A stretch of 64,000 bases of DNA, from contig CAWIQD010000024.1 of NCBI GenBank assembly GCA_963837945.1, forward strand, positions 11,469-75,468, given 5' to 3'. The translations under genes and the position numbers were made by a program. The notes beneath the pieces were generated by a model, which worked only from the letters and a program-made list of their open reading frames with translations, did not search any database and was not told the DNA's origin. The DNA is from an uncultured Acidobacteriota bacterium (GTDB taxonomy: Bacteria; Acidobacteriota; Thermoanaerobaculia; Multivoradales; DATKCC01). Position 1 is the stretch's first letter, and the number at the start of each line of letters is the position of its first letter. This document shows, piece by piece, positions 40,162 through 63,792 of the stretch.

Positions 40162-43100
40162 ATGAGTCGATTTTCTGATTGGCGGCGTACCTTCGCCCTG
40201 GCAGTCGTGTTGCTGCTGGCGAGCGCGGGGATGGCTGCCGCCCAGCAACAGCAAGGCAACCTCTACGGGACGGTCAAGGACACCCAGGGAGCGGCGCTCC
40301 CCGGCGTGACCGTCGAGCTGACCGGGATCGGGGCGCCTTTGGTCCAGGTCACCAACGCTCAGGGACAGTTCCGGTTCCTGAACCTGGACCCGGGCGTGTA
40401 CCACCTGACGGCGAGCCTCGAGGGCTTCTCCACCGTCGAGTACAAAGAGGTGAGCATCGGGGTCGGCCGTAACACCACCCTCGAGATCACCCTTTCGCCG
40501 GCGGTCGAGGAGGTCATCACCGTCACCTCGGAGAGCCCGCTCCTCGACGAGCGCAAGGTCTCCCGCGGCACCACGGTCTCCCAGATCGAGCTGGAGAAGA
40601 TCCCGACCGCCCGCGACCCGTGGGCGATCGTCACGCAGACCCCGGGCGTCCTCTCCGACCGGATCAACGTCGGCGGTGACCAGTCCGGCCAGCAGGCCGT
40701 GTTCACGGCTCCCGGCGTCTCCGACAACGAGAACAGCTTCGCGGTCGACGGCGTCACGATCACCGACATGGCCGCCATCGGCTCCTCGCCGACCTACTAC
40801 GACTTCGACCAGTTCGAAGAGGTCCAGGTCTCCACCGGCGGCACCGACGTCGAGAAGGCCTCGGCGGGCGCCTCCCTCAACCTGGTCACCAAGCGCGGCT
40901 CGAACAACCCGCGCGGCTCGGCCCGGTTCCTGAAGACGGACCACCGCCGGCAGTTCGACCTGCTCGAGCAGGCGAACAGCGACATCTCCGGCGACCTCGA
41001 GAACGGCGACGGCAACGGCGGCTTCCACACCCAGACGCTCGCCGACACGCCGGGCAACGGCATCAACAACATCCTCGACCTCGGCTTCGAGGCCGGCGGA
41101 CCGATCCTCAAGGACAAGCTCTGGGTCTGGGGCTCCTACGGCAAGAACGACATCAAAGAGTTCAATGCCAGCGGCAACCCGGACAACACGGTGCTCGAGA
41201 ACTCGGCGATCAAGCTCAACGGCCAGCCGCTCGCGGCCAACTCGATCGTCGCCTCCTGGAACCGTGGCGACAAGATCAAGGACGGCCGCACCGCGCTGTC
41301 CAACCGGGCGCTCGATTCGTCGTGGAACCAGACCGGCCCGACCGAGATCTGGAAGATCGAGGACACGCACGTCTTCTCCTCGGACTTCTACCTCACCGGC
41401 CAGTACTCCTACGTCGACGGCGGCTTCGCCCTCCAGTCGAAGGGCGGGAGCTTCCCGGCCGGCCTCAGGACCACGGACGTCGGCCTCGCCGTCGACAACG
41501 GCGAGCCGATCTGGGACACTGACGGCCTCTGGCACAACGGCTTCTACAGCGGCGGCACGGACCGCAACGCCGACCAGTACCAGGTCGACGGCTCCTACTT
41601 CTTCAACACCGGCAACCTCAACCACGAGCTGAAGTTCGGCGTCTCCTACCGGAAGTTCGACGCGCTGTCCGCCTTCGGCTACCCGGGCGGCCGCAACGCC
41701 TCGGACATCACCTGCGAGGCCCTCAGCCTCTGCGGCGTGCTGACCCAGTTCGGCTACCCCGGCGACGACCTGGTGGTCGTCTACCGCGGTTCGACGGGCC
41801 CGCCGTCGACGCAGAAGTACACCGCGGCCTGGCTGCAGGACACGCTGACCACCGGCAACTGGACGATCAACGCCGGCTTGCGTTACGACAAGCAGACGGG
41901 CACGAACGCTGCGACGACCCTGCCTTCGAACCCGCTGTTCCCGGCTCTGCTGCCGGCGCTCAACTACGGCGGTGCCGACGCGCCGTTCGACTGGAACACG
42001 TTCTCCCCCCGCGTGGGCGTGACCTACGCCCTCGGGGCCGAGCGCAAGACCCTGCTCCGGGCCAGCTACTCCCGGTTCGCCGAGCAGCTCCAGACGGGCA
42101 ACATCACCCGCCTCAACCCCCTGGGCCCGGCGTACGCGACGCTCGCCTTCGCCGACGCCAACGGGAACAACCGCTACGACGTCGGAGAGGCTGCCAAGGT
42201 CTTCGACTTCACTGGCTTCGATCCCGCGAACCCGGGGAGCCTCGAGAACCCGAACATGACGGACTCGGACCTCAAGCCGGCGACGACGGACGAGATCCTG
42301 GCCGGGGTCGAGCACGCCTTCCTGCCGGAGTTCGTGGTCGGCCTGGACTTCACGTACCGCAAGACCAGCGACATCGCGGACGGCCGGCTGCTCATCACCG
42401 ACGCCAACGGCGTCACGCGGGCGGCGACCCGGGACGACTACGTGTTCTTCAAGACCGTCTCCAGCGGGGATGACCTCAACAATGACGGCTCTCCGGACGT
42501 GCCGTTCCTGCCCGACGGCACGCCGTGGTCGCGGGACTACTACCAGCTCGATAAGTCCGTCAGCCGGACCGGCGGCACTCTCCTGACCAACGGCGATTCA
42601 TCGGTGGATTACATGGGCGTGGCGTTGAGCCTGACCAAGCGCCTGTCGAACCGCTGGATGGCCCGCGGTTACTTCCAGTACGGTGACCAGAGCTGGAACA
42701 TCGGGTCCGAGACCCACCGCTTCGACAGCCCGAACGTCGATTCGGCGCTCCAGGACAAGGACGGCGAGACCTACATCGTCCAGTCCGCGGGCTCCGGCCC
42801 GTTCGGCGACGTGCTGATCCAGTCGAGCTGGTCGGCCAACGTCAACGGCCTCTACCAGGTGGCCCCGGATCGTCCGTGGGGCTTCAACATCGCCGGCAAC
42901 CTGTTCACCCGGGAGGGCTATGCGTTGCCGTACGACTTCCAGGTCAGCGTTCCGAACACCGGCAACGTCGACTCCGCGGTGGTCAATCACGTCGACTCCA
43001 TCCGGGCGCCCAACGTCTACTCGTTGGACCTGCGCCTCGAGAAGGACATGGCGTTCACCGACAACCTGAGCGGCATCCTGTCGCTCGACGCGTTCAACGT

Positions 43101-43221
43101 GACGAACCAGAACACGGTCCTGCAGCGCAACCGTAGTCTGGAGGCAACGCGTGCCAACTTCGTCACCCAGACGCTGGCGCCGCGTATCTATCGTCTCGGC
43201 TTCCGCCTGAACTGGCGCTGA
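40162..43221 (+). CDS. TonB-dependent receptor with an N-terminal carboxypeptidase-regulatory-like domain
   Basis: Signal peptide, CarbopepD_reg (GTVKDTQGAALPGVTVEL...) and plug/barrel motifs, C-terminal ...RIYRLGFRLNWR. Ribosome-binding site AGGAGGA. Confidence 0.75.
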   Translation: MSRFSDWRRTFALAVVLLLASAGMAAAQQQQGNLYGTVKDTQGAALPGVTVELTGIGAPLVQVTNAQGQFRFLNLDPGVYHLTASLEGFSTVEYKEVSIGVGRNTTLEITLSPAVEEVITVTSESPLLDERKVSRGTTVSQIELEKIPTARDPWAIVTQTPGVLSDRINVGGDQSGQQAVFTAPGVSDNENSFAVDGVTITDMAAIGSSPTYYDFDQFEEVQVSTGGTDVEKASAGASLNLVTKRGSNNPRGSARFLKTDHRRQFDLLEQANSDISGDLENGDGNGGFHTQTLADTPGNGINNILDLGFEAGGPILKDKLWVWGSYGKNDIKEFNASGNPDNTVLENSAIKLNGQPLAANSIVASWNRGDKIKDGRTALSNRALDSSWNQTGPTEIWKIEDTHVFSSDFYLTGQYSYVDGGFALQSKGGSFPAGLRTTDVGLAVDNGEPIWDTDGLWHNGFYSGGTDRNADQYQVDGSYFFNTGNLNHELKFGVSYRKFDALSAFGYPGGRNASDITCEALSLCGVLTQFGYPGDDLVVVYRGSTGPPSTQKYTAAWLQDTLTTGNWTINAGLRYDKQTGTNAATTLPSNPLFPALLPALNYGGADAPFDWNTFSPRVGVTYALGAERKTLLRASYSRFAEQLQTGNITRLNPLGPAYATLAFADANGNNRYDVGEAAKVFDFTGFDPANPGSLENPNMTDSDLKPATTDEILAGVEHAFLPEFVVGLDFTYRKTSDIADGRLLITDANGVTRAATRDDYVFFKTVSSGDDLNNDGSPDVPFLPDGTPWSRDYYQLDKSVSRTGGTLLTNGDSSVDYMGVALSLTKRLSNRWMARGYFQYGDQSWNIGSETHRFDSPNVDSALQDKDGETYIVQSAGSGPFGDVLIQSSWSANVNGLYQVAPDRPWGFNIAGNLFTREGYALPYDFQVSVPNTGNVDSAVVNHVDSIRAPNVYSLDLRLEKDMAFTDNLSGILSLDAFNVTNQNTVLQRNRSLEATRANFVTQTLAPRIYRLGFRLNWR

Positions 43222-43245
43222 GCCGGCGCGATCCAGTAGTCTCGA

Positions 43246-43281
43246 CCGCCGGGGGGGCAACCCCCCGGCGGTTTTGTTTTT
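43246..43281 (+). terminator. Rho-independent terminator: CCGCCGGGGGG-GCAA-CCCCCCGGCGG followed by TTTTGTTTTT
   Basis: Perfect 11-bp GC stem with a tetraloop and a U-run, 25 nt after the TonB receptor stop. Confidence 0.8.
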
Positions 43282-43408
43282 CGGCCCGCCCCAGAACCCG
43301 GCGGCCGGCATAAATCCTGCTCGCCGAAGGTTGCAAGCGGGGGAGCACTGGCCCGAAACGGGATGCGGCGCTCCCCGAATCGACGATTCCCCCGAGAAGG
43401 AGAGCACG

Positions 43409-44569
43409 ATGCAACCGAAGATTTGGAAGACGGCCCTGCCCGTCGCCGCCCTCCTCCTGCTGCTCGCGGCGCTGCCCGCCGCCGCGCAGGACTGGGCCGG
43501 GCACGGACGGGCGAGCGGTCGCGTGACCGACCAGGACGACAACCCGATCGCGGGCGCCAAGATCACGCTGCATCTCCCCGGCCGTCCCGATGCCGGCCCG
43601 CCGCCGGTCACCACCGACAAGAAGGGACGCTGGAGCCTTCTCGGCCTGACCGGGACAACCTGGACCGTCGTGATCCAGGCCGAGGGGTACAAGGACTCGG
43701 AGGGAAGCTTCGACGTCGACGAGTACGAGGTCACGCCGCCCCTGGTCGTCAAGCTCGAACGGAATCCCTTCGACTCCGTCCAGCAGGGCCAGGACCTGAT
43801 CGACCAGGGCAAGTACGACGAGGCCCGGGCGAAGTTCGAGAAGGCCCTGCCCGACATGGGCGACCACCAGAAGGCCCAGGTCCACGCCTTGATCGGCACG
43901 ACCTACTATCAGCAGAAGAGCTACGAACAGGCGCGCGCCGAGTACGAGAAGGCGCTTCCCGGGCTCGAAGACAAGGAGAAGACCGGGGTGCTGCTGCGCC
44001 TGGGCGACTCCTACGCGCAGCAGCACCAGGCCGCCAAGGCTCGCGAGGTCTACGAGCAGAGCCTGCCGGCTCTACCAGCCGATCAGCAGGCTCCGGTGCT
44101 GCTCGCGATCGCCCGCTCCTACGACCAGGAGGGCAACCGCGACCAGGCGGTCGCCACGGTCAAGAGAATCCTCGACGCCTCGCCGGACAACGTCCAGGCG
44201 CTGCAGCTCATCGCCGACCTCCTGAGCCGCGAGGGCAAGGAGGACGAGGCCCAGGCCTACCTCGACAAGATCCCCGCGACCGAGAAGCTGCCGCCCGACA
44301 TGCTCCTCAACCAGGGCATCCGGTTCTACAACGAAGCCAAGGGCGACGAGAAGAAGCTGGCCCAGGCGATGGACAACTTTCAGCGCGTGATCGAGCAGAA
44401 CCCGAACATGGGCGACGCCTACTACTACCGGGGCCTCGTCTACCTGAACCAGGGCAAGAACGACCTGGCCAAGGCCGACTTCCAGAAGCTCTTGGAGCTC
44501 GAGCCGAACAGCGAGCACGCCAAGGACGCCAAGGACTTCCTCAAGTACCTCCAGTCGCCCTCGCGATGA
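43409..44569 (+). CDS. Secreted CarboxypepD_reg-like domain + TPR repeat protein
   Basis: Ribosome-binding site GAAGGAGAG, signal peptide, then TPR repeats. Confidence 0.5.
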   Translation: MQPKIWKTALPVAALLLLLAALPAAAQDWAGHGRASGRVTDQDDNPIAGAKITLHLPGRPDAGPPPVTTDKKGRWSLLGLTGTTWTVVIQAEGYKDSEGSFDVDEYEVTPPLVVKLERNPFDSVQQGQDLIDQGKYDEARAKFEKALPDMGDHQKAQVHALIGTTYYQQKSYEQARAEYEKALPGLEDKEKTGVLLRLGDSYAQQHQAAKAREVYEQSLPALPADQQAPVLLAIARSYDQEGNRDQAVATVKRILDASPDNVQALQLIADLLSREGKEDEAQAYLDKIPATEKLPPDMLLNQGIRFYNEAKGDEKKLAQAMDNFQRVIEQNPNMGDAYYYRGLVYLNQGKNDLAKADFQKLLELEPNSEHAKDAKDFLKYLQSPSR

Positions 44570-46824
44570 TCCGGGCCGCTTCGCCAGGCGCCAGGAGCCT
44601 GCGCGGCAGAGGTCCAGGGCCGCGCAGGCTCCTGGTGCTCGGCCTTCTGGTGGCAGCGTGCGCCGGCGCCTGGGCTTGTGACGGCGCTCCGGCCGCGAGC
44701 GGGGAGAGCTCCGCCGGCCCCTCGGGGACCTCCGGGGCGGCGACCTCGACACCGGCGAGCTCGCAGCCGGCGCCCCCCGCGGCTCGCCGGGAGACGCCGG
44801 CTGCCGCCACGCAACCCGCCGAGCCGGTGGCGAACGTCCTCCTGATCACGATCGATACCCTGAGGGCCGACTCCCTCGGTTTCTCGAGCCATGGCCGGGT
44901 CAAGACGCCGACCATCGACCGGCTGGCCGCCACGGGGAGCGCCTTCGCCGACGCCCACGCCCAGAACGTCGTCACCCTGCCCTCCCACACGAACATCCTG
45001 ACCGGTCTCTACCCGTACCAGCACGGCGTGCGCGACAACCAGGGGTTCGTCTTGAGCGCGGACGTCCCGACCTTGGCCACCCGTCTCCACCAGGCCGGCT
45101 TCGCGACCGCCGCGGTCGTCGGCGCCTTCCCCCTCGATGGCCGCTTCGGTCTCGGCCGCGGCTTCGATCTCTACGACGACCAGTACGGCGAGGGCGCCGA
45201 GGAGGACCAGTTCCGCGAGCTCCAGCGGCCGGGCGACGAGGTGGTGGCGCGCGGCGAGGCCTGGTGGCAGGCGCACCGCGGCGCGCGACGATTTCTCTGG
45301 ATCCACCTCTACGACGCCCACACTCCCTACGATCCCCCCGAGCCGTACGCGTCGCGCTACGCCGACAACCCCTACCTCGGCGAGGTCGCCGCCATCGACC
45401 ATTACCTCACCCCGTTCCTGCAGCCGTTCCTGGAGGGCCGGGAGGAACCGACGCTGATCGTCTTCACCGGCGATCACGGCGAGGGCCTCGGGGACCACGG
45501 GGAGGAGAGCCACGGTCTCTTCGCCTACGAGCCTACACTCCACATTCCCCTCGTCCTCTGGGGACCGGGCATCGCCGCCGGCGCCTCCGACCGGCCGGCG
45601 CGGCACGTCGACATCGTCCCCACGGTCCTCGACGCCCTCGGCCTGCCGGAGCCCAAGGACCTCCCGGGGAGCTCGCTGCTTCGGCCGCCGCCCCCGGATC
45701 CGGCCCGAAACGCCTCCTACTTCGAGGCCCTCTCGGCCAACCTGAACCGGGGCTGGGCGCCCCTGCGGGGCGTCATCGCGGAAGGGTACAAGCTCGTCGT
45801 GCTGCCGATCCCGGAGCTCTACGACCTCCACAAGGATCCCGAGGAGACGCACAACCTCTTCGCGACCGACAGCCGGCACGCTCACGAGCTGGCCCGGCTG
45901 TTGCCGGCCGAGTCGGTCTGGCCGCCGCGCCAGGGACAGGTCTCGGACCAGGAGGCCGCGGCCCTTCAGAGCTTGGGCTACCTCTCGGGCAAGGTCCGGC
46001 GCAAGTCGACGTACACGGCGGCGGACGATCCCAAGAACCTGGTCGGGGTCGACCAGGACTTCCACCGCTTCATCGACCTGTTCCAGAAGCGCCAGTGGCA
46101 GGAGGCGACGGCCCTCATCCAGAAGATCGTGGCGGTCCAGCCCGACATGGGGATCGGCTACAACTACTACGCCCAGGTCCTCCTTTCCCAGGGCATGGAC
46201 CGGAAGGCGCTCGAGGTCCTGGCGCGGGCTCACGAGCGCGGGGTGGCGACCCAATCGGCGGAGCGCCAGTACGGGTTGCTCCTGGCGGAGCTCGGCCGGC
46301 CCGAAGAGGGGGTGGAGATCCTCCGGCCGCTGGCGGCTTCCGGGGATCCCGATACTCTGAACGCCCTGGGGGTGGCGCTCCTCGCCGCCGGCCACGGGGA
46401 CGAGGCGAAAGCCGCGTTCAACGACGTCTTCGCCCACGACCCGCGCAACCCCGGCGCCCACCAGAACCTCGCCTTCGCCGCCCTGAAGACCCAGGACTGG
46501 CCGACCGCCGAGAGCGAGGCACGCAAGGCCCTCGCCCTCAACGAGAACCTGCCCCGGTGCTGGAACTTCCTGGGCGTCGCCCTCTTCAACCTCGGCCGGG
46601 TCCACGACAGCCTCGACGCCTGGGACCGGGCGGCCACGCTCCAGCCGCGCAACCCGGACCTCTTGTTCAACCTGGGCCTGGTGGCCTCCCAGGCCGGCGA
46701 GACCGCGCGCGCCAGAAAGGCCCTCGAACAGTTCCTCGCCGTCGCTCCGCCCGAGCAATACGGCCCGGACCGGGCCAAGGTCCGGGCCCTCCTGCGCAAG
46801 CTCGGATCAGAACCCGGCTCGTGA
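44566..46824 (+). CDS. Sulfatase-like (PF00884, alkaline-phosphatase superfamily) hydrolase/transferase fused to a C-terminal TPR domain, paralog 1; Thr in place of the sulfatase Cys/Ser (TLPSH)
   Basis: LLITIDTLRADSLGF...NVVTLPSHTNILTG...FTGDHGEGLGDHGE motifs. Lipoprotein-like signal (VAACAG). Start overlaps the previous stop. Confidence 0.6.
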   Translation: MIRAASPGARSLRGRGPGPRRLLVLGLLVAACAGAWACDGAPAASGESSAGPSGTSGAATSTPASSQPAPPAARRETPAAATQPAEPVANVLLITIDTLRADSLGFSSHGRVKTPTIDRLAATGSAFADAHAQNVVTLPSHTNILTGLYPYQHGVRDNQGFVLSADVPTLATRLHQAGFATAAVVGAFPLDGRFGLGRGFDLYDDQYGEGAEEDQFRELQRPGDEVVARGEAWWQAHRGARRFLWIHLYDAHTPYDPPEPYASRYADNPYLGEVAAIDHYLTPFLQPFLEGREEPTLIVFTGDHGEGLGDHGEESHGLFAYEPTLHIPLVLWGPGIAAGASDRPARHVDIVPTVLDALGLPEPKDLPGSSLLRPPPPDPARNASYFEALSANLNRGWAPLRGVIAEGYKLVVLPIPELYDLHKDPEETHNLFATDSRHAHELARLLPAESVWPPRQGQVSDQEAAALQSLGYLSGKVRRKSTYTAADDPKNLVGVDQDFHRFIDLFQKRQWQEATALIQKIVAVQPDMGIGYNYYAQVLLSQGMDRKALEVLARAHERGVATQSAERQYGLLLAELGRPEEGVEILRPLAASGDPDTLNALGVALLAAGHGDEAKAAFNDVFAHDPRNPGAHQNLAFAALKTQDWPTAESEARKALALNENLPRCWNFLGVALFNLGRVHDSLDAWDRAATLQPRNPDLLFNLGLVASQAGETARARKALEQFLAVAPPEQYGPDRAKVRALLRKLGSEPGS

Positions 46825-50896: not shown

Positions 50897-50914
50897 GACT
50901 GCTAAGATCCGCTC

Positions 50915-51853: not shown

Positions 51854-51910
51854 GAGCTCAGGAACGGCGCCTCCCCGATCCAACACCTACGCTCCCGAGA
51901 TTCAGCCGTC

Positions 51911-53600: not shown

Positions 53601-55202
53601 GTGAAGGCCCTCGGTAGAGCACGATCCGCCGGATCGCCCGGCACCCTCGAGGCGCGCAGGCCCGTGGCCCCGATCACCACGGCGGCCGCCCTGGCCGCCG
53701 CCGGCGCCTTCGCGCTGCTGCGTCTCGCCCTCGCTCCGACCTTCGAGCTCCTGCCCCAGAGCGCCTACTACTTCACGGCCTACGCCGAGCACCTGGCACT
53801 CTCCTACTACGACCATCCGCCGATGGTCGGCTGGCTGCTCCGCGCGGGAGCCGAGCTCTTCGGGCGGACGACCTTCGGCGTCCACCTCACCCTCTGGCTC
53901 GCGACGCTCGGAACCCAGCTCGCTTTTCTCTGGGTCGCCCGCCGGGTGCTGGGGCCGGCCAAGGGTGCCTTCGCCCTGGCGCTCCTCGCCTCGACCACGA
54001 TGGTCGCCCTGCTCTCCTTCGTCGCCGTCCCGGACGTTCCGCTCCTGCTCTTCTGGACCCTCGCCGTCGGAGCCCTCGACCGGGCTCTCGTCGGGGCGGC
54101 CCCGGGGGAGGACGCGGTCGGGCCGGCGCCGGGGCGACCCGGCGCCTGGCTCGCCGCCGGCCTCGCCATGGGCCTCGCGCTGCTCGCGAAGTACACGGCC
54201 CTCTATCTCCAGGGCGGCCTCGTCCTCTTCCTCCTGGTCTCGCGCCCGCACCGGCGCCTGCTGCGCACCCCCTGGCCCTACGCCTCGCTGGCGCTCGCCC
54301 ATGTCGTCTGCCTGCCGGTGTATCTCTGGAACGCGCGCCACGGCTTCGCGTCGTTCCTCTTCCAGTCGGCCGGGCGGGCGGAGGAGATCCGCTTCGATCC
54401 GGGCGACCTGCTGGGATTCCTGGCGGGCCAGGCGGCGGTCCTGCTGCCAGTGCTCTTCGTCGCCTTCCTGGTGAGCGCCTGGCGCGGCACGCGGAGGCTC
54501 GCGCCGGGCGGCGGCGCGGCGCGGGAGCCCAGAACCCTCCTGCTGCTCTGCCTCTCTCTTCCCCTCCTCGCCACCTGTGTCGTCCTCGCGCCTTTCGCCT
54601 GGGTCAAGATGAACTGGGCGATGCCGGCCTACGTCGCCGGCGTGCTCCTGGCGGCCCCGGCGATGGGGCGGCGGGCCTGGCGCTGGCAGCTCGGGACGGC
54701 GGTCGTCGTCCACCTGCTGCTCGCCGTCGAGCTGGTCGCCTACCCGGTGCTGCCGACGAACGAGGAGGCGTGGTTCGGCTGGGACGAGCTCGCGGCCCGA
54801 GTGGAGGCGCAGGCGGCGGGCCATCCCGGCGCCTTCGTCTTCGCCGGCGACAACTACCGCACGACGGCGGAGCTGCGCTTCTACGGTCCGCGCCACGGCC
54901 TGACCCGCGCCTACGGCATGGACGTGATCGGCTGGAACGCCCTGGGCTACGAGTACGTGGGGGAGGACCTCGGGGACCTGGCCGGACGCGACGCCCTCTT
55001 CCTGCGCTCCGAGCCCCTCTCCGGCCCGAGCGCCGAGACGCAGCGCTACCTGGCCCAGGCCCGGCGCTACTTCGCGGCCGTCCGGGAGGTCGAGCCGATC
55101 GCGATCCGCCGGCACGGCCGGGTCGTCCGGCGCTTCCGCGTGTTCTTCTGCGCCGGGTACCGCGGTCCGGACGCACCGCGACCGGGAGGGGGCGTCCATT
55201 GA
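53601..55202 (+). CDS. GT39/GT83-like membrane glycosyltransferase (ArnT/PMT family)
   Basis: YYDHPPMVGWL and multiple TM helices. Confidence 0.65.
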   Translation: MKALGRARSAGSPGTLEARRPVAPITTAAALAAAGAFALLRLALAPTFELLPQSAYYFTAYAEHLALSYYDHPPMVGWLLRAGAELFGRTTFGVHLTLWLATLGTQLAFLWVARRVLGPAKGAFALALLASTTMVALLSFVAVPDVPLLLFWTLAVGALDRALVGAAPGEDAVGPAPGRPGAWLAAGLAMGLALLAKYTALYLQGGLVLFLLVSRPHRRLLRTPWPYASLALAHVVCLPVYLWNARHGFASFLFQSAGRAEEIRFDPGDLLGFLAGQAAVLLPVLFVAFLVSAWRGTRRLAPGGGAAREPRTLLLLCLSLPLLATCVVLAPFAWVKMNWAMPAYVAGVLLAAPAMGRRAWRWQLGTAVVVHLLLAVELVAYPVLPTNEEAWFGWDELAARVEAQAAGHPGAFVFAGDNYRTTAELRFYGPRHGLTRAYGMDVIGWNALGYEYVGEDLGDLAGRDALFLRSEPLSGPSAETQRYLAQARRYFAAVREVEPIAIRRHGRVVRRFRVFFCAGYRGPDAPRPGGGVH

Positions 55203-55219
55203 TACCATCCCGAGCCGTG

Positions 55220-57238
55220 ATGCGCGCCGGCCGTCGTCTCCTCGCTCGCACCTTTCCCGCCTCGCTCCTGCTCGTCGCCGCCCTCGCCGCACTCGGGTGC
55301 GGCGGCCGGCGGGACCCCCTGGAGGCGGTACCCGAGGGGCGGCCGGTCGTCCTCGTCTCCATCGACACCTTGCGCTCCGACCATCTGCCGGCGTACGGCT
55401 ACGATCGGGTGGAGACCCCGGCGATCGATGCGCTCCGCGCCGACGGCATCCTCTACGAGCGGGCCTACAGCGAGGTGCCCCTCACCCTGCCCTCCCACGC
55501 TTCGATCCTCACCGGCCTCCTGCCGCCCGCCCACGGCGTGCGCGACAACGCCGGCTATCGCCTGAGCGAAGCGGTGGGGCCGACGCTCGCCCAGCGCCTC
55601 CACGACGCCGGCTACGCGACGGGCGCCGCGGTGTCGTCCTACGTGCTGCGTCACGAGACCGGCCTCGCTCGAGGGTTCGACCTCTACGACGACCACGTCG
55701 CGCCGGGGCACGAGAAGACGATCGGTGAGATCCAGCGGCCCGGGCCCGAGACGCTCCAGGCGGTGCTGCCCTGGCTGCGCTCGGCGGTCCACCGCCCGTT
55801 CTTCCTCTTCTTCCACATCTACGAGCCCCACACGCCGCGCGACCCGCCGGAGCGCTTCGCCGCCCGCTACGGCAAGACCTACGACGGCGAGGTGGCGGCG
55901 GCCGACGCGGTGGTCGGGCAGCTCGTCGACGAGCTCAAGGTCCTCGACCTCTACGACCGCTCGACGATCGTCCTGCTGGCGGATCACGGCGAGGGCCTGG
56001 GCGACCACGGCGAGGACGAGCACGGCGTGCTCCTCTACCGCGAGAGCCTGCAGGTGCCGCTGATCGTCAAGCTCCCCGGCTCGGCCGGCGCCGGGGCCTC
56101 GGTGGCCACGCCCGCCGAGCTCGTCGACGTGGCGCCGACGATCCTCGCTCTCGCCGGCGCCGAGGTGCCCGCCTCGCTCCCCGGCACCTCGCTCCTCGCG
56201 CTCGCCGAGGCGGCGCGGCGCTCGGCGGGCGACGGCGACCGAGCCGAGCCCCGGGCGCTCTACTCCGAGTCGTTCCACGCCCGGCTGCGCTTCGGCTGGA
56301 GCGGCCTGACCTCGGTCATCCGGGGCCGCTACCAGTACATCGAGGGGAGCGACCGGGAGCTCTACGACCTGGCCGCCGACCCGGGCGAGACGAAGAACGT
56401 GCTGCGCTCCGAGCGCCAGGTCTACGCCTCCCTGCGCGACGCCCTCCACGGCTTCGATTCCGAGCTCCAGCAGCCGTTCGAAGAGGACGCGGAGACACGT
56501 TCTGCCCTCGCCGCGCTCGGCTACCTGGGCGGCGTCGCCTCCGGCCCGGGCGAGGGACCGCGTGCCGACCCCAAGACCATGCTCCCGGCCCTCGACGGGC
56601 TGCGCACCGGGGTCGAGATGGTCTCGCGCGGCGACAACGAGCGCGCCGTGCCGTTGCTCCGCGAGGCGACCCGCCAGATTCCCCGCTCGATCGACGCCTG
56701 GCAGTTCCTGGGGCTGGCCCTCGACCGCCTGGGGCACGAAGAGGAGGCCCTGGCCGACTACCGGCGGGCGTTCGATCTCTCGAACGGCTCGCCGCTCCTC
56801 GCCAAGCCGCTCGCCCGGGTGTCGCTCCAGCTCGGGCACCTGGACGACGCGGTCCAGTTCCTGCGCCTGGCCGTCGACCAGGAGCCGGACGACATGGCGC
56901 TGCGCCTCCTCGAGGCCCGGACGCTCCTCGTCTCGGGCCACCCGCAGGACGCCCTCGAGGCCGCCGGCAAGGCGGTCGAGATGGCGCCCGGGTCGGCCGA
57001 CGCCCGCTACCTGCGCGGAGCCGCGGAGGTGGCTGCGGGCAAGCTCGCCGACGCGGAGCGCGACCTGCGCCAGGCGCTGGAGCTCGCTCCCGACCATCCG
57101 GCGGCGCTCAACGACCTGGCGGTGCTCCTGCTGGAGCAGGGCCGGCGCGACGAGGCCCGGAGCCTCCTCGAGCACCTGGTCCGGATCCAGCCGGGCAACC
57201 AGGCCGCGCGCCGGGACCTGGCCTATCTCGAGCGCTAG
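55220..57238 (+). CDS. Sulfatase-like hydrolase/transferase + TPR lipoprotein, paralog 3
   Basis: Lipobox LGCGG. VVLVSIDTLRSDHLPAYGY...EVPLTLPSHASILTG...LADHGEGLGDHGE. Confidence 0.6.
   Translation: MRAGRRLLARTFPASLLLVAALAALGCGGRRDPLEAVPEGRPVVLVSIDTLRSDHLPAYGYDRVETPAIDALRADGILYERAYSEVPLTLPSHASILTGLLPPAHGVRDNAGYRLSEAVGPTLAQRLHDAGYATGAAVSSYVLRHETGLARGFDLYDDHVAPGHEKTIGEIQRPGPETLQAVLPWLRSAVHRPFFLFFHIYEPHTPRDPPERFAARYGKTYDGEVAAADAVVGQLVDELKVLDLYDRSTIVLLADHGEGLGDHGEDEHGVLLYRESLQVPLIVKLPGSAGAGASVATPAELVDVAPTILALAGAEVPASLPGTSLLALAEAARRSAGDGDRAEPRALYSESFHARLRFGWSGLTSVIRGRYQYIEGSDRELYDLAADPGETKNVLRSERQVYASLRDALHGFDSELQQPFEEDAETRSALAALGYLGGVASGPGEGPRADPKTMLPALDGLRTGVEMVSRGDNERAVPLLREATRQIPRSIDAWQFLGLALDRLGHEEEALADYRRAFDLSNGSPLLAKPLARVSLQLGHLDDAVQFLRLAVDQEPDDMALRLLEARTLLVSGHPQDALEAAGKAVEMAPGSADARYLRGAAEVAAGKLADAERDLRQALELAPDHPAALNDLAVLLLEQGRRDEARSLLEHLVRIQPGNQAARRDLAYLER
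57002..57232 (+). repeat. Direct repeat copy A (231 bp, the 3' end of paralog 3)
   Basis: ~97% identical to 57770-58001. Confidence 0.85.
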
Positions 57239-57350: not shown

Positions 57351-57707
57351 TCAGTTGCACCCGATATCCACGTATTGGGTTTCGTTGTCCCCGAAGTAAT
57401 CTCCGTGCCTGATGTTTCCGCGAGAGGCAACCAGAAAGATTTTGTGGTGTCCTGCGGGCAACTGCTTGGAGGTCGTCTCGCCCCCGGAGAAGCCGTTGGC
57501 ACCATCGTCGAATGTCCAGGCGTAGGTTTCGACCTCACCAGTCGTACAGCTGGCGTCGAGAGCGCAGTACCCGCCGCACGTGCATGCCACATCGAAGCAG
57601 GCCGTGATGCCTCCACTTGCTTCTGCCGGCGACGGCGCGCTGGCTGACAGCACCAGAATCGAAAGGGAGGACAAGAGAACGAGAAGAACTGAGCGCTTCA
57701 TTGGCAT
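57351..57707 (-). CDS. Small secreted Cys-rich protein (118 aa) encoded in a low-GC insert
   Basis: Signal peptide MPMKRSVLLVLLSSLSILVLSASA. The mature part has 7 Cys (CFDVACTCGGYCALDASC...DIGC). Local GC ~55% versus ~70% elsewhere. Confidence 0.4.
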   Translation of the reverse strand: MPMKRSVLLVLLSSLSILVLSASAPSPAEASGGITACFDVACTCGGYCALDASCTTGEVETYAWTFDDGANGFSGGETTSKQLPAGHHKIFLVASRGNIRHGDYFGDNETQYVDIGCN

Positions 57708-57769: not shown

Positions 57770-58001
57770 GCCCGCTACCTGCGCGGAGCCGCGGAGGTGG
57801 GTGCGGGCAAGCTCGCCGACGCGGAGCGCGACCTGCGCCAGGCGCTGGAGCTCGCTCCCAACCATCCGGCGGCGCTCAACGACCTGGCGGTGCTCCTGCT
57901 CGAGCAGGGCCGGCGCGACGAGGCCCGGAGCCTCCTCGAGCACCTGGTCCGGATCCAGCCGGGCAACCAGGCCGCCCGCCGGGACCTGGCCTATCTCGAG
58001 G
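57770..58001 (+). repeat. Direct repeat copy B (duplicated 3' end of the paralog 3 gene, not attached to a full gene)
   Basis: Encodes ...YLRGAAEVGAGKLADAERDLRQALELAPNHPAALNDLAVLLLEQGRRDEARSLLEHLVRIQPGNQAARRDLAYLEGH. Confidence 0.85.
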
Positions 58002-58028
58002 GCCACTGAGGCTGCGCACCGGGCCGGC

Positions 58029-59901
58029 CTACTTCGCCCGGTCCACCGGCGACTCCTCCCAGGGGCTCCGCACCGGCTTGCCCTGCTCGTAGAGCGTGAG
58101 CCACCGGTGGTTGCGCGCGATCACCTCGGGGCGCCCGCGCGGCTCGATCTCTCCGAGCACGCGACGCTGCCAGGCGACGGCTTCGGCGAATCGGCCCGCC
58201 TCGGCGTACGCCATCGCCACCGTCTCGGCGCGCTCCTCGTTCGGCTCGCGACGGAAGGCGTCCTCGGCGAGCCGCACCGCCTCGGCTCCGTCGCGGGCCG
58301 CCGGGTCGGGGGCGGTCGCCAGCAGCCGGCCGAGCAGATGGGAGAGGACCAGGTTGCCGGGCAGGGCGACGAGATCGCTCTCGAGCGCCTTGCGGGCGTC
58401 GACGTACTCGCCGCCCAGGATCAGGGCCATCGCCCGCCCGAAGCGGGTGTCGGCGTCCTCCGGCGCCAGCTCCACGACCCGGGAGAAGCTCCTGGGCCGC
58501 CGCGCGAAAGCGGCCCAGGCGGCCCAGGAGCTTCGCGAGCTCGAGGTGCGCGGCCCGGGAGTCGGGCAGGAGCTCGGTGGCCCGCCGGAAGTGCGCGGCC
58601 GCGCCCTGGGAGTCGCCCGTCTGATCGAGGGCGCGGGCGAGATCGAGCTCGGCCTTCCCGGTGAGCTCGACCTCGTCCGGCCGGAGCTGGCCGAGAAGCG
58701 CCTCGAGCTCCTGGGCGGCGCGCGGGAGCTCGGCCGCGCGAAGCAGAGCCTCGGCCCACCGCAAGTGGGCGGCGTGGTCGAGCGGATCGATCTCGACCGT
58801 CTTGCCGTAGTGCTCGGCCGCCTCCTGCCACCGGCCCTCCTCCGCCAGGGCGCTCGCCAGGTTGTACTGGGCGTTGCGGTAGGCGGGGTCGAGCTCGATC
58901 GCCTTCTCGAACCGCTCGACGGCCTCGTCCCTCCGGCCGGCCTGGATCAGTGCGGAGCCCAGGTTGTACTGGTTCACGGCGTCGTCCGGAGCGACCTCGA
59001 CCGCCTTGCGGTACTCGCGGAGGGCAATGTCCAGGAGCCCCTTTTGGAGCGCGTTGTTGCCCCGTTTCGCGTGGATCGCGGCCCCCTTGAGAAGGCCGCT
59101 GAGCTGATCCATACGGGGGTCGGAGAAGCGCGCGTCATGGCCGTGGGCGAGAGCCAGGTGCTCTTTCGCGCGGGCCAGATCGCCGGTGTCGCGGTACGCC
59201 ACGCCGAGCTGGTACTGGATGGCGTCGGCCGACGGCTGGAGCTCGAGCGCCCTCTCGAAGAGCGTGATCGCGTCCCCCGGCTGCTTCCGCCGCACGGCGA
59301 CCGTGCCGAGACCCTGGAGAGCCGCCGCCGATTTCGGCTGGAGCTCCAAGGCCGCCCGGTAGCTCTGCTCGGCTCCGTCGAGCTCGCCCCGCGCGAGCTG
59401 TACCTGGCCGAGGCGGATCAGGGTCGCCACGTCGGGCCCCAGGTCGCGCGCCCGGGCGAAGCTCGCTTCGGCCTCCTCCATGCGGCCTTGGCGCCGGTAG
59501 AGGAAGCCCAGGTAGTACGGCCACGAGGGGTCAGCGGGGGCCAGCCTCTCGGCGTCGGCGAGCGCCGGCTCGGCGGCGTCCGCCAGGTCGTAGAGCAGGT
59601 ACAGGCTCCCCATCCGCCCGTAGGCGGCCGCCAGCTCGGCGTCGGAAGCGTTCCCCGTAGCGACCCGTTCCGCGAGATCCTGGCGCTCGATCCGGAGCTG
59701 CTCCTGGTCCTCCGGCTCGAGGTTGCCGATCGGCGGCGCGGGCACCGGCTCGAGGCCCGGCCGCGGCGGGGCCAGCGGGGTGGCGGCCTCGCCGGCGGCA
59801 ACGCGCGGAGCCTCCGGGGCCTGGTCGCCGGCCACCGCCCGGGCCGCGGAGAGGGCGAAGACGAGGAACGGGACGAAGGCCGCGGCGCAAAGAGCCCTCA
59901 T
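58029..59901 (-). CDS. Secreted TPR-repeat protein; apparent frameshift near 58480-58520
   Basis: MRALCAAAFVPFLVFALSAARA signal. TPRs continue in the adjacent frame (58029..58475). Start overlaps the FG-GAP gene stop (ATGA). Confidence 0.5.
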
Positions 59902-61674
59902 GGCGCCGGCGCCCCGCCGCCCTCGTAGAGCGTCGCGTAGCGCCCGGCCTCGAGCCGCGTCCATTGCTCGCTCCGCCCGTCGGGCCAGTCCACCCGCAAC
60001 CCGGTGACGTCGGCGGCTCCACCCGCCTTGGGGCCCAGGCCGAAGAGCACCCGCGGATCGTTCGAGGAGCCGTAGCTGCCGCAGGTCCTCGCCTCGCGGT
60101 AGAGCGTGGGCGCGCCCTTCCGGTAGAGGACGGCGCGCGCGCCCAGCATGTCGCGCACGCCACCCCCGCCGCCGGCCGCTCCGACCAGGCGCAGGCCGAG
60201 CCAGGGCTCGTCCTGGGCGACCTGGTCGACGAGGAGGCGCGCGGGGCCGGCGCTGTTGGCGACCAGGAGGTCCGAGTCGCCATCCTCGTCCACGTCGCCC
60301 ATGGCGACGCCGCGGCTCACCTCCGAAAGCCGGAAGACCTTGCCGGCCTCGTCCGTGACCTCCTCGAAGCGGCCGCCACCCAGGTTGTGGTAGAGGCTGT
60401 TGGTCTGGTGGAGGGCGTAGGCGTCGCCGGCGCGCACCTCGTCCCAGAGGAGCGTCACCGCCCCGTTGGCGACGAAGAGGTCCTGGAGGCCGTCGCCGTC
60501 GTAGTCGACGAGCGCGGTGCCGAAGCCGGTGAAGCGCCAGGAGGGCGTGCCCAGACCGGTCTGCTGCGAGCGATCCTCGAAGATGGCGTGCCCGTCGTTC
60601 AGGTAGACCGTGTTGGTCTCGTGCGCGAGGTGGGTCATGAACAGGTCTTCGGTGCCGTTGCCGTCGAGGTCCCCGGTCACCACCCCCATGCTCGCCTCGG
60701 GCTGGCCCATGGCGTTGACCGAGCAACCGCCCAGCAGCGCGCCGTTCTGGAAGGTGCCGTCGTGCTGGTTGAGCCAGAGCTGGTTGGGCAGGCCGTCGTT
60801 GGCCACGTAGAGGTCCACCCAGCCGTCGCCGTCGAAGTCCGCCGCCGTGGCGCCGAGCGCCGGGCCGAACTCCGACGCGATCCCGGAGCTCGCGGTCACG
60901 TCCTCGAAGGTGCCGTCGCCCCGATTGTGAAACAGACGGTCGGGCTCCGGCTCGAAGGCCGATGGGCCACAGTAGTCGCGGGCGCCCGCGGGCGTGCTGC
61001 ACGGCTTGTCGGTGGCGGCGCGGAAGTCCACGTAGTTGCCCACGAAGAGGTCCAGCCGGCCGTCGCGGTCGTAGTCGAAGAAGACCGCCGGCACGCTCCA
61101 GCGGGGGTCGTCCGTACCGCTCCTCGCGGTCGCGTCCTCGAACGTGCCGTCGCCCCGGTTGTGGAGCATCTGGTTCGAGCCGCCGTAGTTGGTGACGTAG
61201 AGGTCCACCCAGCCGTCGCCGTCATAGTCGCCGGCGGCGACCCCCATGCCGTAGCCGGTGCCCAGGGCGCCGCTCCGGGAGGTGACGTCGGTGAAGTGGA
61301 CGACCTGGGTGCCGTCGGGCGCGAGCGTAGGTGTCGTTGCGGTACAGGCGGTCGCTCAGGGGCACCGGGTACTTCGGGGGGAACGTGGCGTCGGCCACCG
61401 TCTTGCCCTTGCCGAGCATCGTGCCCTGGACCATGTAGACGTCGAGGTCGCCGTCGCCGTCGTAGTCGACCAGCGCCGCCCCCTGGCCCATCATCTCGGC
61501 GAAGTCGAGCTCGCCGGACATGCCGTTGAAGTGCACGAAGTCGAGCCCCGTCTCGGCCGCCCGGTCGACGAACAGGTCGCCCGGCGGGGAGGGCGCGGCG
61601 GCCCCGAGCAGCGCGGCGGTGAGCGGCGCGAGCAGGAGCCGGCGAAGCGGCCGGAAGACGGGGGCGCGGCGCAT
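59898..61674 (-). CDS. FG-GAP repeat / ASPIC-UnbV (CRTAC1-like) secreted protein; apparent frameshift near 61300-61330
   Basis: Repeated DYDGDGWVDLYV, DYDRDGRLDLFV and DFDGDGWVDLYV motifs. The N-terminal signal peptide part is in the adjacent frame (61222..61674). Confidence 0.6.
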
Positions 61675-61677
61675 CGA

Positions 61678-63792
61678 CTACGACCCGATGCCGCCCAGAA
61701 TGCGTTGCGCCTCGCCGCGCTCGGCGGCGTAGCCCGCCTCGGGCGCCGCCGCCAGGAAACGGCCCAGGGCCTTGCGCGCGGTGCCCGCGTCGCCGATCCT
61801 GGCCGCGACCGAGCCCAGGTTGAACAGGACGTCGAGGTTGTCCGGATCGAGGGTCGCGGCGCGCTTCCAGGCCTCGACCGCGGTCTTCGGATCGCCGAGG
61901 TTGAAGTAGGCGATCGCCAGGTTGTTCCAGGCGTTGGGCCGGCGGCCCTCGAGGGCCAGGGCGCGGCGGGCGGCGTCGCGCGCTTCGGCGTAGCGCCGGC
62001 GCTGGATCGCCACGAAGGAGAGGGTCTCGAGCGGCCGCGGGTCCCGGGGCCGGGCGCCGGCCGCCTTCTCGAGGACGGAGGTCGCCTCGTCGTAGCGCCC
62101 GAGCGCGGCGTACGCCAGGGCGAGGGCGTTCTCGGTGTCGGCGTCGGAGGCGTCCGGGTCCACCGTCTCGAGCAGCTTCACCGCTTCGGCCGGGCGCCCG
62201 GCCCGCACCAGGCTCAAGCCGAGCTGCTGGCGCAACGCGGCGTTGGCGGCGCCGGCCCGGTCGGCCGCTTCGAGGAGCGCCAGGGCTCCGGCGTTGTCGT
62301 CGCGCTGGAGGAGGATCCGCGTGAGGTACTCGTAGGCCACCGTCATCGTCGGGCGGGCCGCCACGATCTCGCGGCCCAGCCGCACCGCCTCATCGTACCT
62401 CCCCGCGGTGTAGAGCTGCACCATCGAGTTGAGCTTGCGGTCGAGCTCGATCAGGTTCTTGGGGTCGTCCTCCGGGCCGTAGGCGGCCTTGCCGGGGGCC
62501 GAGCCGCCGAGGTAGCCCAGGCTCCGGAGCTCGGCCGCCTCCTCCGGCGCGACCGTGCCCGCGGCCGGCGGCCAGACCGACTCGCGGGGGAGCGTCGCGG
62601 CCAGCTCGTGGGCCTCGCGCGGGCGGTCCTGGAAGAGGTTCCGGGTCTCCCCGGGGTCGGCCGCCAGGTCGTAGAGCTCCGGGATCGGCAGCTCGATCAG
62701 CTTGACGTGGCGCCGGATCACGCCGCGCAGCGGCGCGGCGCCGAACTCGAGGTTGGGCGAGAGCGATTCGAAGTAGGCCGTGCGCGAGGAGTCGGCGGGG
62801 CCGACCAGCGAGCGGCCCGGCAGATCGGCGGGCGGGGCGACGCCCAGCAGAGCGAGCGCGGTGGGCATCAGGTCGACGTGCTGGGCGAGGCGGCCGTCGC
62901 TTCCCGGCTCGACGCCCGGGCCCCAGAGGACCATCGGCACCCTCAGGGTCGGCTCGTAGGCGAAGAAGCTGTGGGTCGCCTCGCCGTGCTCGCCCAGGGC
63001 CTCGCCGTGATCGGCGGTGAACACGATCAGGGTGGGCGCCTCCCGGCCCGCCAGGAAGCCGTCGAGGAGCGGCGCCAGGTAGGAGTCGACCGCCGCCACC
63101 TCCCCGAGGTAGGGCTGGCCCCCGGCGAAGCGCGCGGGCGGAGCGTACGGGGCGTGCGGATCGAAGAGATGGAGCCAGAGGAAGCGCCGGCGGCCCCGGT
63201 TCTCCCGCCACCAGCGGCTGCCGCGCTCCACCACCTCGCTGCCCGGCCGCTCGGGGTAGGTGAACAGATGCTCGCCCTGGCCTTCCCTGCCGCCGCCGAA
63301 GTCGTCGTCGTAGACGTCGAAGCCGCGGTCGAGGCCGTAGCGCGAGTCGAGGGCGAAGGAGCCGACGACGGCGGCGGTGGCGTAGCCGGCGGCGTGCAGC
63401 ACCGTCGCCAGCGTCGGGACGTCCGGGCCGAGCTTGAAGCCGCCGTTGTTCCTCACGCCGTGCTGGTAGGGATAGAGGCCGGTCAGGATGTTGGTGTGGG
63501 AGGGCAGAGTGACCACGTTCTGGGCGTGGGCGTCGGTGAAGACGCGGCCGGCGGCGGCCAGCCGGTCGAGGGCCGGGGTCGCGACCTCGGTGTTGCCGGC
63601 GAAACCGAGGGCATCGGAGCGCAGGGTGTCGACGGTGATCAGGAGGAGGTTCTCGGGCGGGCCCGCCGGGGCGGCAGCGGGGGACGAGGCGGCCGGGGCC
63701 GGGTCGGCGCTCCCGCCCCCCTCGCGGTCCGCCGGCCGGTCCGTGCAGCCCGCCAGGACGAGCAGGGCGGCGAGCGCCGCCCACGCCCTCAC
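61678..63792 (-). CDS. Sulfatase-like hydrolase/transferase + TPR lipoprotein, paralog 4
   Basis: The GTG start overlaps the upstream stop (GTGA), giving MRAWAALAALLVLAGC (lipobox). LLLITVDTLRSDALGF...NVVTLPSHTNILTG...FTADHGEALGEHGE. Confidence 0.6.
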   Translation of the reverse strand: MRAWAALAALLVLAGCTDRPADREGGGSADPAPAASSPAAAPAGPPENLLLITVDTLRSDALGFAGNTEVATPALDRLAAAGRVFTDAHAQNVVTLPSHTNILTGLYPYQHGVRNNGGFKLGPDVPTLATVLHAAGYATAAVVGSFALDSRYGLDRGFDVYDDDFGGGREGQGEHLFTYPERPGSEVVERGSRWWRENRGRRRFLWLHLFDPHAPYAPPARFAGGQPYLGEVAAVDSYLAPLLDGFLAGREAPTLIVFTADHGEALGEHGEATHSFFAYEPTLRVPMVLWGPGVEPGSDGRLAQHVDLMPTALALLGVAPPADLPGRSLVGPADSSRTAYFESLSPNLEFGAAPLRGVIRRHVKLIELPIPELYDLAADPGETRNLFQDRPREAHELAATLPRESVWPPAAGTVAPEEAAELRSLGYLGGSAPGKAAYGPEDDPKNLIELDRKLNSMVQLYTAGRYDEAVRLGREIVAARPTMTVAYEYLTRILLQRDDNAGALALLEAADRAGAANAALRQQLGLSLVRAGRPAEAVKLLETVDPDASDADTENALALAYAALGRYDEATSVLEKAAGARPRDPRPLETLSFVAIQRRRYAEARDAARRALALEGRRPNAWNNLAIAYFNLGDPKTAVEAWKRAATLDPDNLDVLFNLGSVAARIGDAGTARKALGRFLAAAPEAGYAAERGEAQRILGGIGS

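Follow-up and report, generated by a model that had tools for sequence, protein, structure and literature searches.

Sulfatase-like TPR lipoproteins with a predicted threonine nucleophile, encoded beside Oar-class transporters in Acidobacteriota

The locus considered here, four paralogous genes for sulfatase-like lipoproteins (P1-P4) of an uncultured Acidobacteriota bacterium (Thermoanaerobaculia, Multivoradales; GenBank assembly GCA_963837945.1), has its closest described counterparts partly in the alkaline phosphatase superfamily and partly among outer-membrane transport systems. It lies in a stretch of 64,000 nucleotides (contig CAWIQD010000024.1, positions 11,469-75,468 of the forward strand), which we call the window and by which all coordinates are numbered. 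In the superfamily, the S1 sulfatases and the phosphonate monoester hydrolases (PMHs), represented by the structures 7ebp, 6hhm, 7stt, 7oz8 (BT1918) and 2vqr/4upk (PMH), are exported enzymes that share a first-strand Asp, a DHG metal pair and the His of an H-x-P motif, the nucleophile of the sulfatases being a formylglycine (FGly) derived from Cys or Ser. The nucleotide pyrophosphatases/phosphodiesterases (NPPs; PF01663), exemplified by the Xanthomonas enzyme (Xac NPP; 2gsn), employ a Thr nucleophile. LtaS, EptA, MCR-1, OpgB and BcsG, membrane-proximal and extracytoplasmic, likewise use a Thr (or Ser) in a PF00884-type domain and act on phosphodiester donors, and in all characterized transferases of the EptA/LtaS type a polytopic membrane domain binds the lipid donor. 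On the transport side, SusC/SusD and Oar-type modules place a transporter with a CarboxypepD_reg-type extension directly upstream of a lipoprotein made of helical repeats. P1-P4 share features with each of these, and we argue that they are probably phosphoryl-transfer enzymes built on a sulfatase scaffold around an NPP-like core, and that the unit conserved around them is one of transporter and enzyme.

Architecture and catalytic core of the lipoproteins

Genes in the window, whose G+C content is about 72%, were called by codon-position GC and then checked with Pfam and NCBIfam. P1 (44566-46824), P2 (46821-49019) and P3 (55220-57238) are on the plus strand and P4 (61678-63834) is on the minus strand; all four open reading frames (ORFs) translate cleanly, and each product starts with a signal peptide and a lipobox (VAAC, LAGC, ALGC and LAGC, respectively). 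Pfam recognizes PF00884 (E 1e-39 to 1e-46), with its alpha/beta fold and C-terminal subdomain, SGSH_C, a partial PF01663, and many TPR families in a C-terminal domain of about 290 aa. Where sulfatases have C/S-x-P-x-R, all four proteins read T-L-P-S-H-x3-L-T-G-L. The first-pass annotation, made from the sequence alone, had described four paralogous PF00884 lipoproteins with a T-L-P-S-H motif and a C-terminal TPR domain, and that description stands in every part. Among the paralogs, P1 and P4, at 53% identity, make up subtype A and P2 and P3, at 45%, subtype B, whereas proteins of different subtypes are 31-34% identical.

When whole domains are compared by sequence, FGly sulfatases come out as the nearest proteins of solved structure, with BT1918 (7oz8) matched at 6e-36, and the NCBIfam 'arylsulfatase' model gives 118-163 bits, well under its cut-off of 481 bits. 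Structure comparison returned figures of 34-42 for S1 sulfatases, 35 for phosphonate monoester hydrolase, 32-33 for LtaP/LtaS and 32 for YejM/PbgA, with lower figures for EptC (28) and for EptA, MCR-1, PafA and the NPPs (about 24); Foldseek agrees in placing the scaffold nearest to the sulfatases. The scaffold of the catalytic domain is sulfatase-like, within the sulfatase/PMH clade by both sequence and fold. What sets P1-P4 apart from the S1 sulfatases, besides the additional TPR domain and the lipid anchor, is the catalytic core. The Thr of the family aligns with the FGly Ser of BT1918, and the Arg of the motif is replaced by His. When phmmer aligns the family with BT4656 (5g2v), the query avsafvl falls opposite the target igkwhli, so that the Lys and His of GKWH correspond to Ser141 and Phe143, and AVSAFVL is nearly invariant across the family.

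The same Thr aligns with the catalytic Thr of Xac NPP, and for the 34-residue nucleophile segment the top PDB matches are NPPs (the Xac NPP entries, E 3e-4). In the alignment with Xac NPP this segment of the P-family reads SHVPLTLPSHASMLTGLRPDQHGLRG, the 7mw8 sequence having Ala precisely at the position of the Thr. As in NPP-type enzymes, the Thr is predicted to lie at the N-terminus of a helix and is part of a T-[FL]-P-[NS]-H-x3-x-T-G motif. PF01663 matches the P-family over its N-terminal 220 profile positions, whereas the C-terminal half is sulfatase-like (SGSH_C) and the Zn1 ligands of the NPPs could not be located in it. In the AlphaFold2 (AF2) model, with a predicted local distance difference test (pLDDT) score of 91.6, T91 (P2 numbering here and below) starts the helix 91-100, and D51, H205 and D256/H257 end strands, a predicted placement that is the canonical active-site layout of the alkaline phosphatase superfamily.

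These residues are conserved far beyond the four paralogs. The motif T-x-P-[SA]-H is found in 118 of 120 close homologs, in 146 of 150 representatives of clusters at 50% identity, and in 115 of 119 P1-type homologs, and the four exceptions in the representative set, when inspected, have kept the T and the H and changed the Pro alone; the motif is a property of the family and not a matter of chance. An Asn 21 residues past the Thr is present in 380 of 381 homologs, and we take it to be the equivalent of the phosphoryl-binding Asn111 of the NPPs (Xac NPP numbering). Likewise, a His 12 residues past the His of DHG is present in 391 of 392 homologs, a spacing that presumably matches that of H466 and H478 in MCR-1. 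In 123 sequences no variation is seen at R110, N112, H200, H205, D256, H257, E259, H264 or H269, and the full set of predicted active-site residues in P2 comprises D51, T91, H95, H107, R110, N112, H200, E203, H205, D256, H257, E259, H264 and H269. Of these, D51, T91, D256 and H257 are conserved as a Thr nucleophile with a metal site of the D/E, D, H kind. The first-pass annotation had named the absence of nucleophile and metal-binding residues as the sign of an inactive domain; as both are conserved, the domain does not look inactive.

Because Thr cannot be converted to FGly (PMC5066984), P1-P4 are, judging from their sequences, almost certainly not formylglycine sulfatases, as the first-pass annotation had held. 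No FGly maturase (FGE or anSME) was found among the window genes scanned. We conclude that P1-P4 would be Thr-nucleophile phosphoryl-transfer enzymes on a sulfatase scaffold.

Distribution of the family and its genomic neighborhood

Searches with P2 and with P1 each gave more than 7400 matches (more than 7900 for the P1 type), of which the top ones are all 650-780 aa long, have the same architecture, and come mostly from Thermoanaerobaculia, under source names such as 'sulfatase-like hydrolase/transferase,' 'arylsulfatase A-like enzyme/TadD,' arylsulfatase or choline-sulfatase. When the catalytic domain alone was used in an exhaustive search, 19,766 cluster representatives matched it at E<=1e-30, a maximum with true sulfatases probably among them. 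Of these representatives, the 150 best (E<1e-101) are nearly all long enough to contain the TPR domain, and a few have two catalytic domains; the family members P0121, P0122, and P0123 (1317-1549 aa) carry two sulfatase-like catalytic domains in one polypeptide. Species-representative genomes contain at least 589 relatives, and the best 80 of these belong to metagenome-assembled genomes of Thermoanaerobaculia, Vicinamibacterales and Holophagales, except for a few oddly labeled bins. Overall, this is a very large family of the Acidobacteriota with no characterized member, and in the literature we found nothing specific on the fusion, on Thr-type sulfatase-like enzymes with TPR domains, on their CRTAC1/ASPIC context or on sulfatases of Thermoanaerobaculia.

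In the window, P1-P3 are part of a plus-strand operon (40162-57238) that encodes, in this order, a TonB-dependent transporter, a CarboxypepD_reg-TPR protein, P1, P2, a 626-aa pentein-fold protein, a methyltransferase, a TPR protein, a GT-C glycosyltransferase and P3. The transporter (40162-43221), whose ATG is preceded by the ribosome-binding site (RBS) GGAGGA, has a signal peptide, an N-terminal CarboxypepD_reg extension (PF13620, 4.9e-18), a Plug domain (2.4e-5) and a beta-barrel, and its orthologs match OMP_b-brl_4 and TonB_dep_Rec; it thus fits the Oar class, with its PF13620 extension, Plug and barrel of 22 strands, a subclass defined by that extension (PMC6434023). The gene that follows (43409-44569, plus strand) has an ATG with an RBS at 43409, followed by a signal peptide, and matches CarboxypepD_reg and TPR families in Pfam. 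Three consecutive start/stop overlaps of 4 nt, the first being the ATGA at the start of P1, join the genes for the CarboxypepD_reg-TPR protein, P1, P2 and the 626-aa protein. P4 is the first gene of a minus-strand operon, followed by genes for an FG-GAP/UnbV_ASPIC propeller and for a TPR protein (59901-58029).

For the wider context we collected 79 related loci (designated L001 onward), all from Acidobacteriota and many on short contigs, which were picked by similarity to P2; their genes were labeled with profiles from the window, and unlabeled proteins of about 1000 aa were checked by Pfam, by which 23 of 25 such neighbors turned out to be CarboxypepD_reg-Plug-barrel transporters. In 50 of the 79 loci the sulfatase-like array has an Oar-class transporter at its flank, and transporters occupy 36% of the flanking positions versus 2.2% of all other positions, an enrichment (odds ratio 25, p 6e-30) whose p-value overstates the independence of the loci, chosen as they were by similarity to P2 and related by phylogeny. 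Two to four paralogs stand in tandem in 42 of the 79 loci, and 26 of the tandem arrays contain an adjacent pair of subtypes A and B (for example L005, L014 and L067), in the order A+B or B+A, which is the usual arrangement of the two subtypes and suggests a heteromeric or two-step function. Four long contigs share the order of transporter, CarboxypepD_reg-TPR gene, one or two sulfatase-like TPR genes and several FG-GAP/ASPIC genes, with genes for a TPR lipoprotein and VWA-like proteins upstream and divergent.

The remaining co-occurrences were counted over the 49 loci of at least 15 kb. In 14 of them a CarboxypepD_reg-TPR gene separates the transporter from the sulfatase-like gene, FG-GAP/ASPIC genes are found in 7 and the gene for the 626-aa pentein in 4, and the PMT_2 glycosyltransferase accompanies the module together with the methyltransferase in 2, the two closest relatives only. 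The other immediate neighbors include no family that recurs among the loci. Proteins of 800-880 aa and unlabeled neighbors were also considered as recurrent partners and were set aside as an unrelated mix (MacB/FtsX, NamZ, beta-lactamase, tRNA synthetases, and peptidases). Given the adjacency of the transporter and the rarity of PMT_2 and methyltransferase genes, the conserved unit is therefore a module of transporter, in some cases CarboxypepD_reg-TPR protein, and one or more sulfatase-like TPR lipoproteins, not an envelope cluster centered on a glycosyltransferase.

Proposed function and its alternatives

These observations are best accommodated if P1-P4 are transporter-linked, lipid-anchored phosphoesterases that acquire or process phosphorylated substrates, an explanation to which we would give a little less than an even chance. 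They would be metal-dependent phosphoryl-transfer enzymes, most likely phosphodiesterases or phosphomonoesterases, in which the formylglycine machinery of a sulfatase scaffold has been replaced by an NPP-like Thr/Asn core. A metal coordinated by D51, D256 and H257 would activate Thr91 to attack the phosphate ester, and water would resolve the resulting phospho-Thr intermediate; N112, R110, H95, H205 and H269 would hold the phosphoryl oxygens and perhaps a second metal as well. The TPR domain at the C-terminus may serve for docking, either on a peptide-bearing substrate or on a protein partner, for which the candidates are the transporter, its CarboxypepD_reg extension, the CarboxypepD_reg-TPR protein and the other subtype. 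The functional unit would be an operon that combines an Oar-class transporter with one to four of the enzymes, frequently an A+B pair, and that often encodes a CarboxypepD_reg-TPR protein too. Cleavage of the substrate, in the periplasm or at the outer membrane, would be coordinated with transport, with the transporter moving either the substrate or the product. In the lineage studied here, this unit would be set in a larger exported block that includes TPR proteins, CRTAC1-like propellers, a PAD-like pentein, a GT-C enzyme and VWA-like proteins.

Several points weigh against this explanation. The family has no biochemically characterized member; in the model, the substrate pocket is putative, as is the second metal site; and as the scaffold is closest to that of sulfatases, the enzymes may have a promiscuous or unusual sulfatase chemistry. 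Some loci (L006, L007, L072-L074) have no adjacent transporter, and the relatedness of the loci tempers the enrichment given above. Finally, three genes within 10 kb carry single frameshifts (near 52368, 58450 and 61340), which reflect either errors of long-read assembly or gene decay.

One alternative, which originated with the first-pass annotation, keeps the phosphoryl chemistry and makes P1-P4 transferases of the EptA/LtaS/OpgB/BcsG kind, moving a head group (phosphoethanolamine, phosphoglycerol or similar) from a lipid donor to lipopolysaccharide, an exopolymer or a surface protein, with the GT-C enzyme and the methyltransferase as partners. A Thr nucleophile with a D/T/D/H metal site and the MCR-1-like spacing noted above would suit such enzymes, the lipid anchor would hold them at the membrane, their TPR domains could select protein acceptors, and a PMT_2 gene immediately precedes P3 here and its counterparts in L001 and L005. 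However, the only hydrophobic segment of the lipoproteins is the signal peptide, which the AF2 model renders as a single N-terminal helix (residues 3-23), and neither hydrophobicity nor the model gives any indication of a polytopic membrane domain. The NCBIfam scores are negligible, at 33 bits against a cut-off of 561 for EptA, 31 against 500 for P_eth_NH2_trans, 23-31 against 1200-1250 for the MCR families and 22 against 970 for LtaS, the nucleophile motif is of the NPP type, and the fusion to a TPR domain sets P1-P4 apart from these transferases. Membership of the LtaS/EptA/MCR/OpgB group, which the first-pass annotation had proposed, does not hold for proteins that fall in the sulfatase/PMH clade. 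The envelope or exopolymer head-group modification system suggested along with it also appears doubtful, as its supposed partners, the PMT_2 enzyme and the methyltransferase, co-occur with the module in so few loci, the recurrent partner is a transporter, which that annotation had noted only for its upstream position, and the ArnT/PagL cluster that had been invoked is some 16 kb distant from the locus, with the housekeeping genes for RNase Y and YmdB and with 6S RNA in between. Because the membrane domain with which EptA, LtaS and OpgB bind the lipid donor is missing and the family scores are so low, P1-P4 would more likely be hydrolases than transferases, and we consider the transferase alternative unlikely.

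Another alternative bears on the direction of transport alone, and phosphoesterase chemistry can be combined with it. The Oar protein of Myxococcus is said to have an outward role, for the protease PopC. The PF13620 extension, by which the Oar subclass is defined, is present in the transporter of the window, and the secretion of a protein requires Oar itself (PMC6434023); by analogy, the TPR lipoproteins, possibly along with the CRTAC1-like, PAD-like and TPR proteins, might be delivered by the transporter to the surface or the medium, for remodeling of extracellular or prey-derived material. Every other product of the block except the methyltransferase and the GT-C enzyme has an export signal, and the block is rich in folds that bind or modify proteins (TPR, FG-GAP, VWA-like and PAD-like). 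Yet a role in secretion has been shown for one Oar-class transporter only, the subclass is very numerous in Acidobacteriota with most members presumed to be importers, and we identified no feature specific to secretion at this locus, so that export or display, though an alternative to be reckoned with, also seems an improbable role.

It is less probable still that the sulfatase-like domain is non-catalytic, a ligand-binding module as proposed for YejM/PbgA/LapC, with the TPR domain as a scaffold and the whole protein as a lid or sensor of the transporter. TPR lipoproteins are commonly scaffolds, and the SusD partners of SusC are TPR-like binding proteins. Against this, the nucleophile, the metal ligands, the Asn and seven histidines are essentially invariant in hundreds of sequences that are 30-50% identical, the pattern expected of an active enzyme, and no protein of the locus matches SusD_RagB or a SusD-like family in Pfam, the matches being to generic TPR families only. 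It is very improbable that the annotation is correct and that P1-P4 are true sulfatases, with sulfated polymers brought in by the transporter as their substrates, for although their best sequence and fold matches are S1 sulfatases and operons of transporters and sulfatases are common in polysaccharide utilization loci, C/S-x-P-x-R is missing from every member examined, its Thr substitute is not oxidizable to FGly (PMC5066984), and the sulfate-binding Lys and His have become Ser and Phe and the Arg a His.

Returning to the transporter-linked phosphoesterases, a bolder version of this explanation, which we think has a small chance of being right, is that they form the acidobacterial counterpart of the SusC/SusD systems of Bacteroidota, with an Oar-class transporter and an enzymatic TPR lipoprotein, often as an A/B heteropair, joining capture, cleavage and transport in one outer-membrane complex. 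The differences are that the lipoprotein is not a homolog of SusD and has a catalytic domain of its own, that the phylum is Acidobacteriota and that the association is one of neighboring genes. If this were true, some of the most abundant bacteria of soils and sediments would have a new route of organophosphorus acquisition, and thousands of 'sulfatase' annotations would be wrong.

Even short of this, if the family is counted as sulfatases, the ability of Acidobacteriota to use sulfated organics is probably overestimated. Sulfatase annotations in a Thermoanaerobaculia lineage, which may or may not concern this family, have been read as indicating such use (PMC8528874). As a hybrid of a sulfatase scaffold and an NPP-type Thr/Asn core, the family presents a test case for the switching of nucleophile and specificity in the alkaline phosphatase superfamily, and its linkage to Oar-class transporters provides a testable handle on the role of a numerous and uncharacterized class of acidobacterial transporters. 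Its importance would rise if a complex of transporter and enzyme, or a role in organophosphorus acquisition, were demonstrated.

Other genes of the locus and the window

Among the other products of the plus-strand operon, the secreted 626-aa protein (49016-50896, plus strand), with an N-terminal helical domain, is of interest on its own account, as a deiminase-like enzyme that lacks a Pfam family. It has no sequence match in Pfam, NCBIfam or a phmmer search of the PDB, and only its predicted fold identified it. It has a signal peptide and 162 homologs, all annotated as 'hypothetical,' and each source name that gives a taxon gives Thermoanaerobaculia or Acidobacteriota. Foldseek matches its AF2 model (pLDDT 92.3) to agmatine deiminases and to PAD3 and PAD4, with probability 1.0 and E values between 5e-9 and 1e-7, and with a template modeling (TM) score of about 0.6 on agmatine deiminase. 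The invariant columns are W273, R275 and D276 (WPRD), H335, D428, D430 and C600 (in the motif GGYRCAS). On the strength of the model, the protein is assigned to the pentein superfamily of guanidino-group-modifying enzymes, whose fold is a propeller of five beta-beta-alpha-beta units, with deiminases as its nearest members and with C600, H335 and the Asp residues as putative catalytic residues. The PAD and agmatine deiminases share with it the pentein fold and the C-terminal Cys, W-P-R-D, His and Asp that are invariant in the family, and differ from it in that no sequence similarity is detectable and in its extra N-terminal helical domain and signal peptide.

The methyltransferase (50915-51853, plus strand), an S-adenosylmethionine-dependent enzyme that matches Methyltransf_23/25/11 in Pfam, has no signal peptide. 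It is followed by an exported TPR protein (51911-53600, plus strand), both pieces of which, on either side of the frameshift near 52368, match TPR families, and its 573-aa ortholog in L005 aligns in two frames (52034-52369 and 52368-53597). The GT-C enzyme (53601-55202, plus strand) has multiple hydrophobic segments and matches PF13231 (PMT_2) at 5.8e-25 and PMT at 5e-5; the NCBIfam model of ArnT (GT83) scores it weakly, at 29 bits versus a cut-off of 567, and MIR and the C-terminal PMT_4TMC domain find no match in it. We place it no more narrowly than among the GT-C enzymes of the PMT_2/ArnT type.

In the minus-strand operon, the exported FG-GAP beta-propeller/UnbV_ASPIC (CRTAC1-like) protein (59898-61674) matches FG-GAP_3 at 7.9e-44 and UnbV_ASPIC at 1.7e-12, and its N-terminal piece, with the signal peptide, sits in another frame beyond the frameshift near 61340. 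The exported TPR protein that ends the operon (58029-59901, with a frameshift near 58450) was called from the codon-position GC profile and from a TPR_2 match of 8e-37 for 58453-59901. An ORF on the opposite, plus strand (58096-59928) was rejected as a spurious artefact of high GC, as codon-position GC and the strong TPR matches of the minus strand place the real gene at 59901-58029. Next to it, the 3' end of P3 is present twice, as a direct repeat of 234 nt (57002-57235 and 57770-58003, at 98% identity), and the two copies flank an insert of 534 nt and lower GC that has an ORF for a Cys-rich protein of 116 aa (57351-57701, minus strand) with a signal peptide and no Pfam match. This looks like an insertion that regenerated the end of P3, or like a strain or assembly artefact.

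As to the first-pass gene assignments, the TonB-dependent receptor and the CarboxypepD_reg-TPR protein upstream of P1, the methyltransferase and the FG-GAP protein were all borne out by Pfam. The glycosyltransferase, which had been called GT39, was borne out as a GT-C enzyme with a PMT_2 domain, and for the 626-aa protein, which had been called an amidinotransferase-fold protein, the superfamily was right, the protein being nearer to the deiminases than to the amidinotransferases.

The conserved block reaches further left, to 34064, with minus-strand genes divergent from the transporter operon. One example is a TPR lipoprotein (38552-39718; lipobox LSAGC), recognized by Pfam TPR families, whose N-terminal domain has no assignment; a protein of about 380 aa is found in the same place in six of the related loci (L001-L003, L005, L019 and L057). 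In its N-terminal half, 'GNCLSF ... HGHI' is reminiscent of transglutaminase-like cysteine proteases, a domain that Pfam does not detect there. Beyond it are three exported VWA-related proteins (34064-35146, 35143-36213 and 36249-38474), called from GC at third codon positions, the second with a weak match to VWA_2, and homologs of the 741-aa VWA-related protein are encoded upstream of the module in 11 of the 49 loci, including the six just mentioned. In the promoter region between the divergent genes (39719-40161), inspection by eye, with no formal scan, revealed no obvious Pho-box-like repeats.

Elsewhere in the window, the genes that the first-pass annotation had noted at 21-24 kb are indeed present and encode a PagL lipid A deacylase (21143-21688, minus strand), an ArnT-like PMT_2 enzyme (21726-23426, minus strand) and a GT2 enzyme (23582-24382, plus strand); they constitute a genuine cluster of the lipid A modification type (21143-24382), separate from the locus studied. 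The 6S RNA gene (33359-33542, minus strand; Rfam RF00013, 79 bits) adjoins those of RNase Y (31716-33278) and YmdB (30604-31407). A long minus-strand ORF (11898-19073) switches its coding frame at 15011, where a gene for a TamA-like Omp85/POTRA protein (11898-15011, minus strand) gives way to an upstream gene with a TamB domain (15011-17062 and beyond). At the left end, positions 1-10400 have a G+C content of 0.59-0.68 versus about 0.72 and encode an InsA-like zinc-ribbon protein, RadC and a leucine-rich repeat protein, with a Uma2-family endonuclease just beyond, and this segment may be mobile or foreign.

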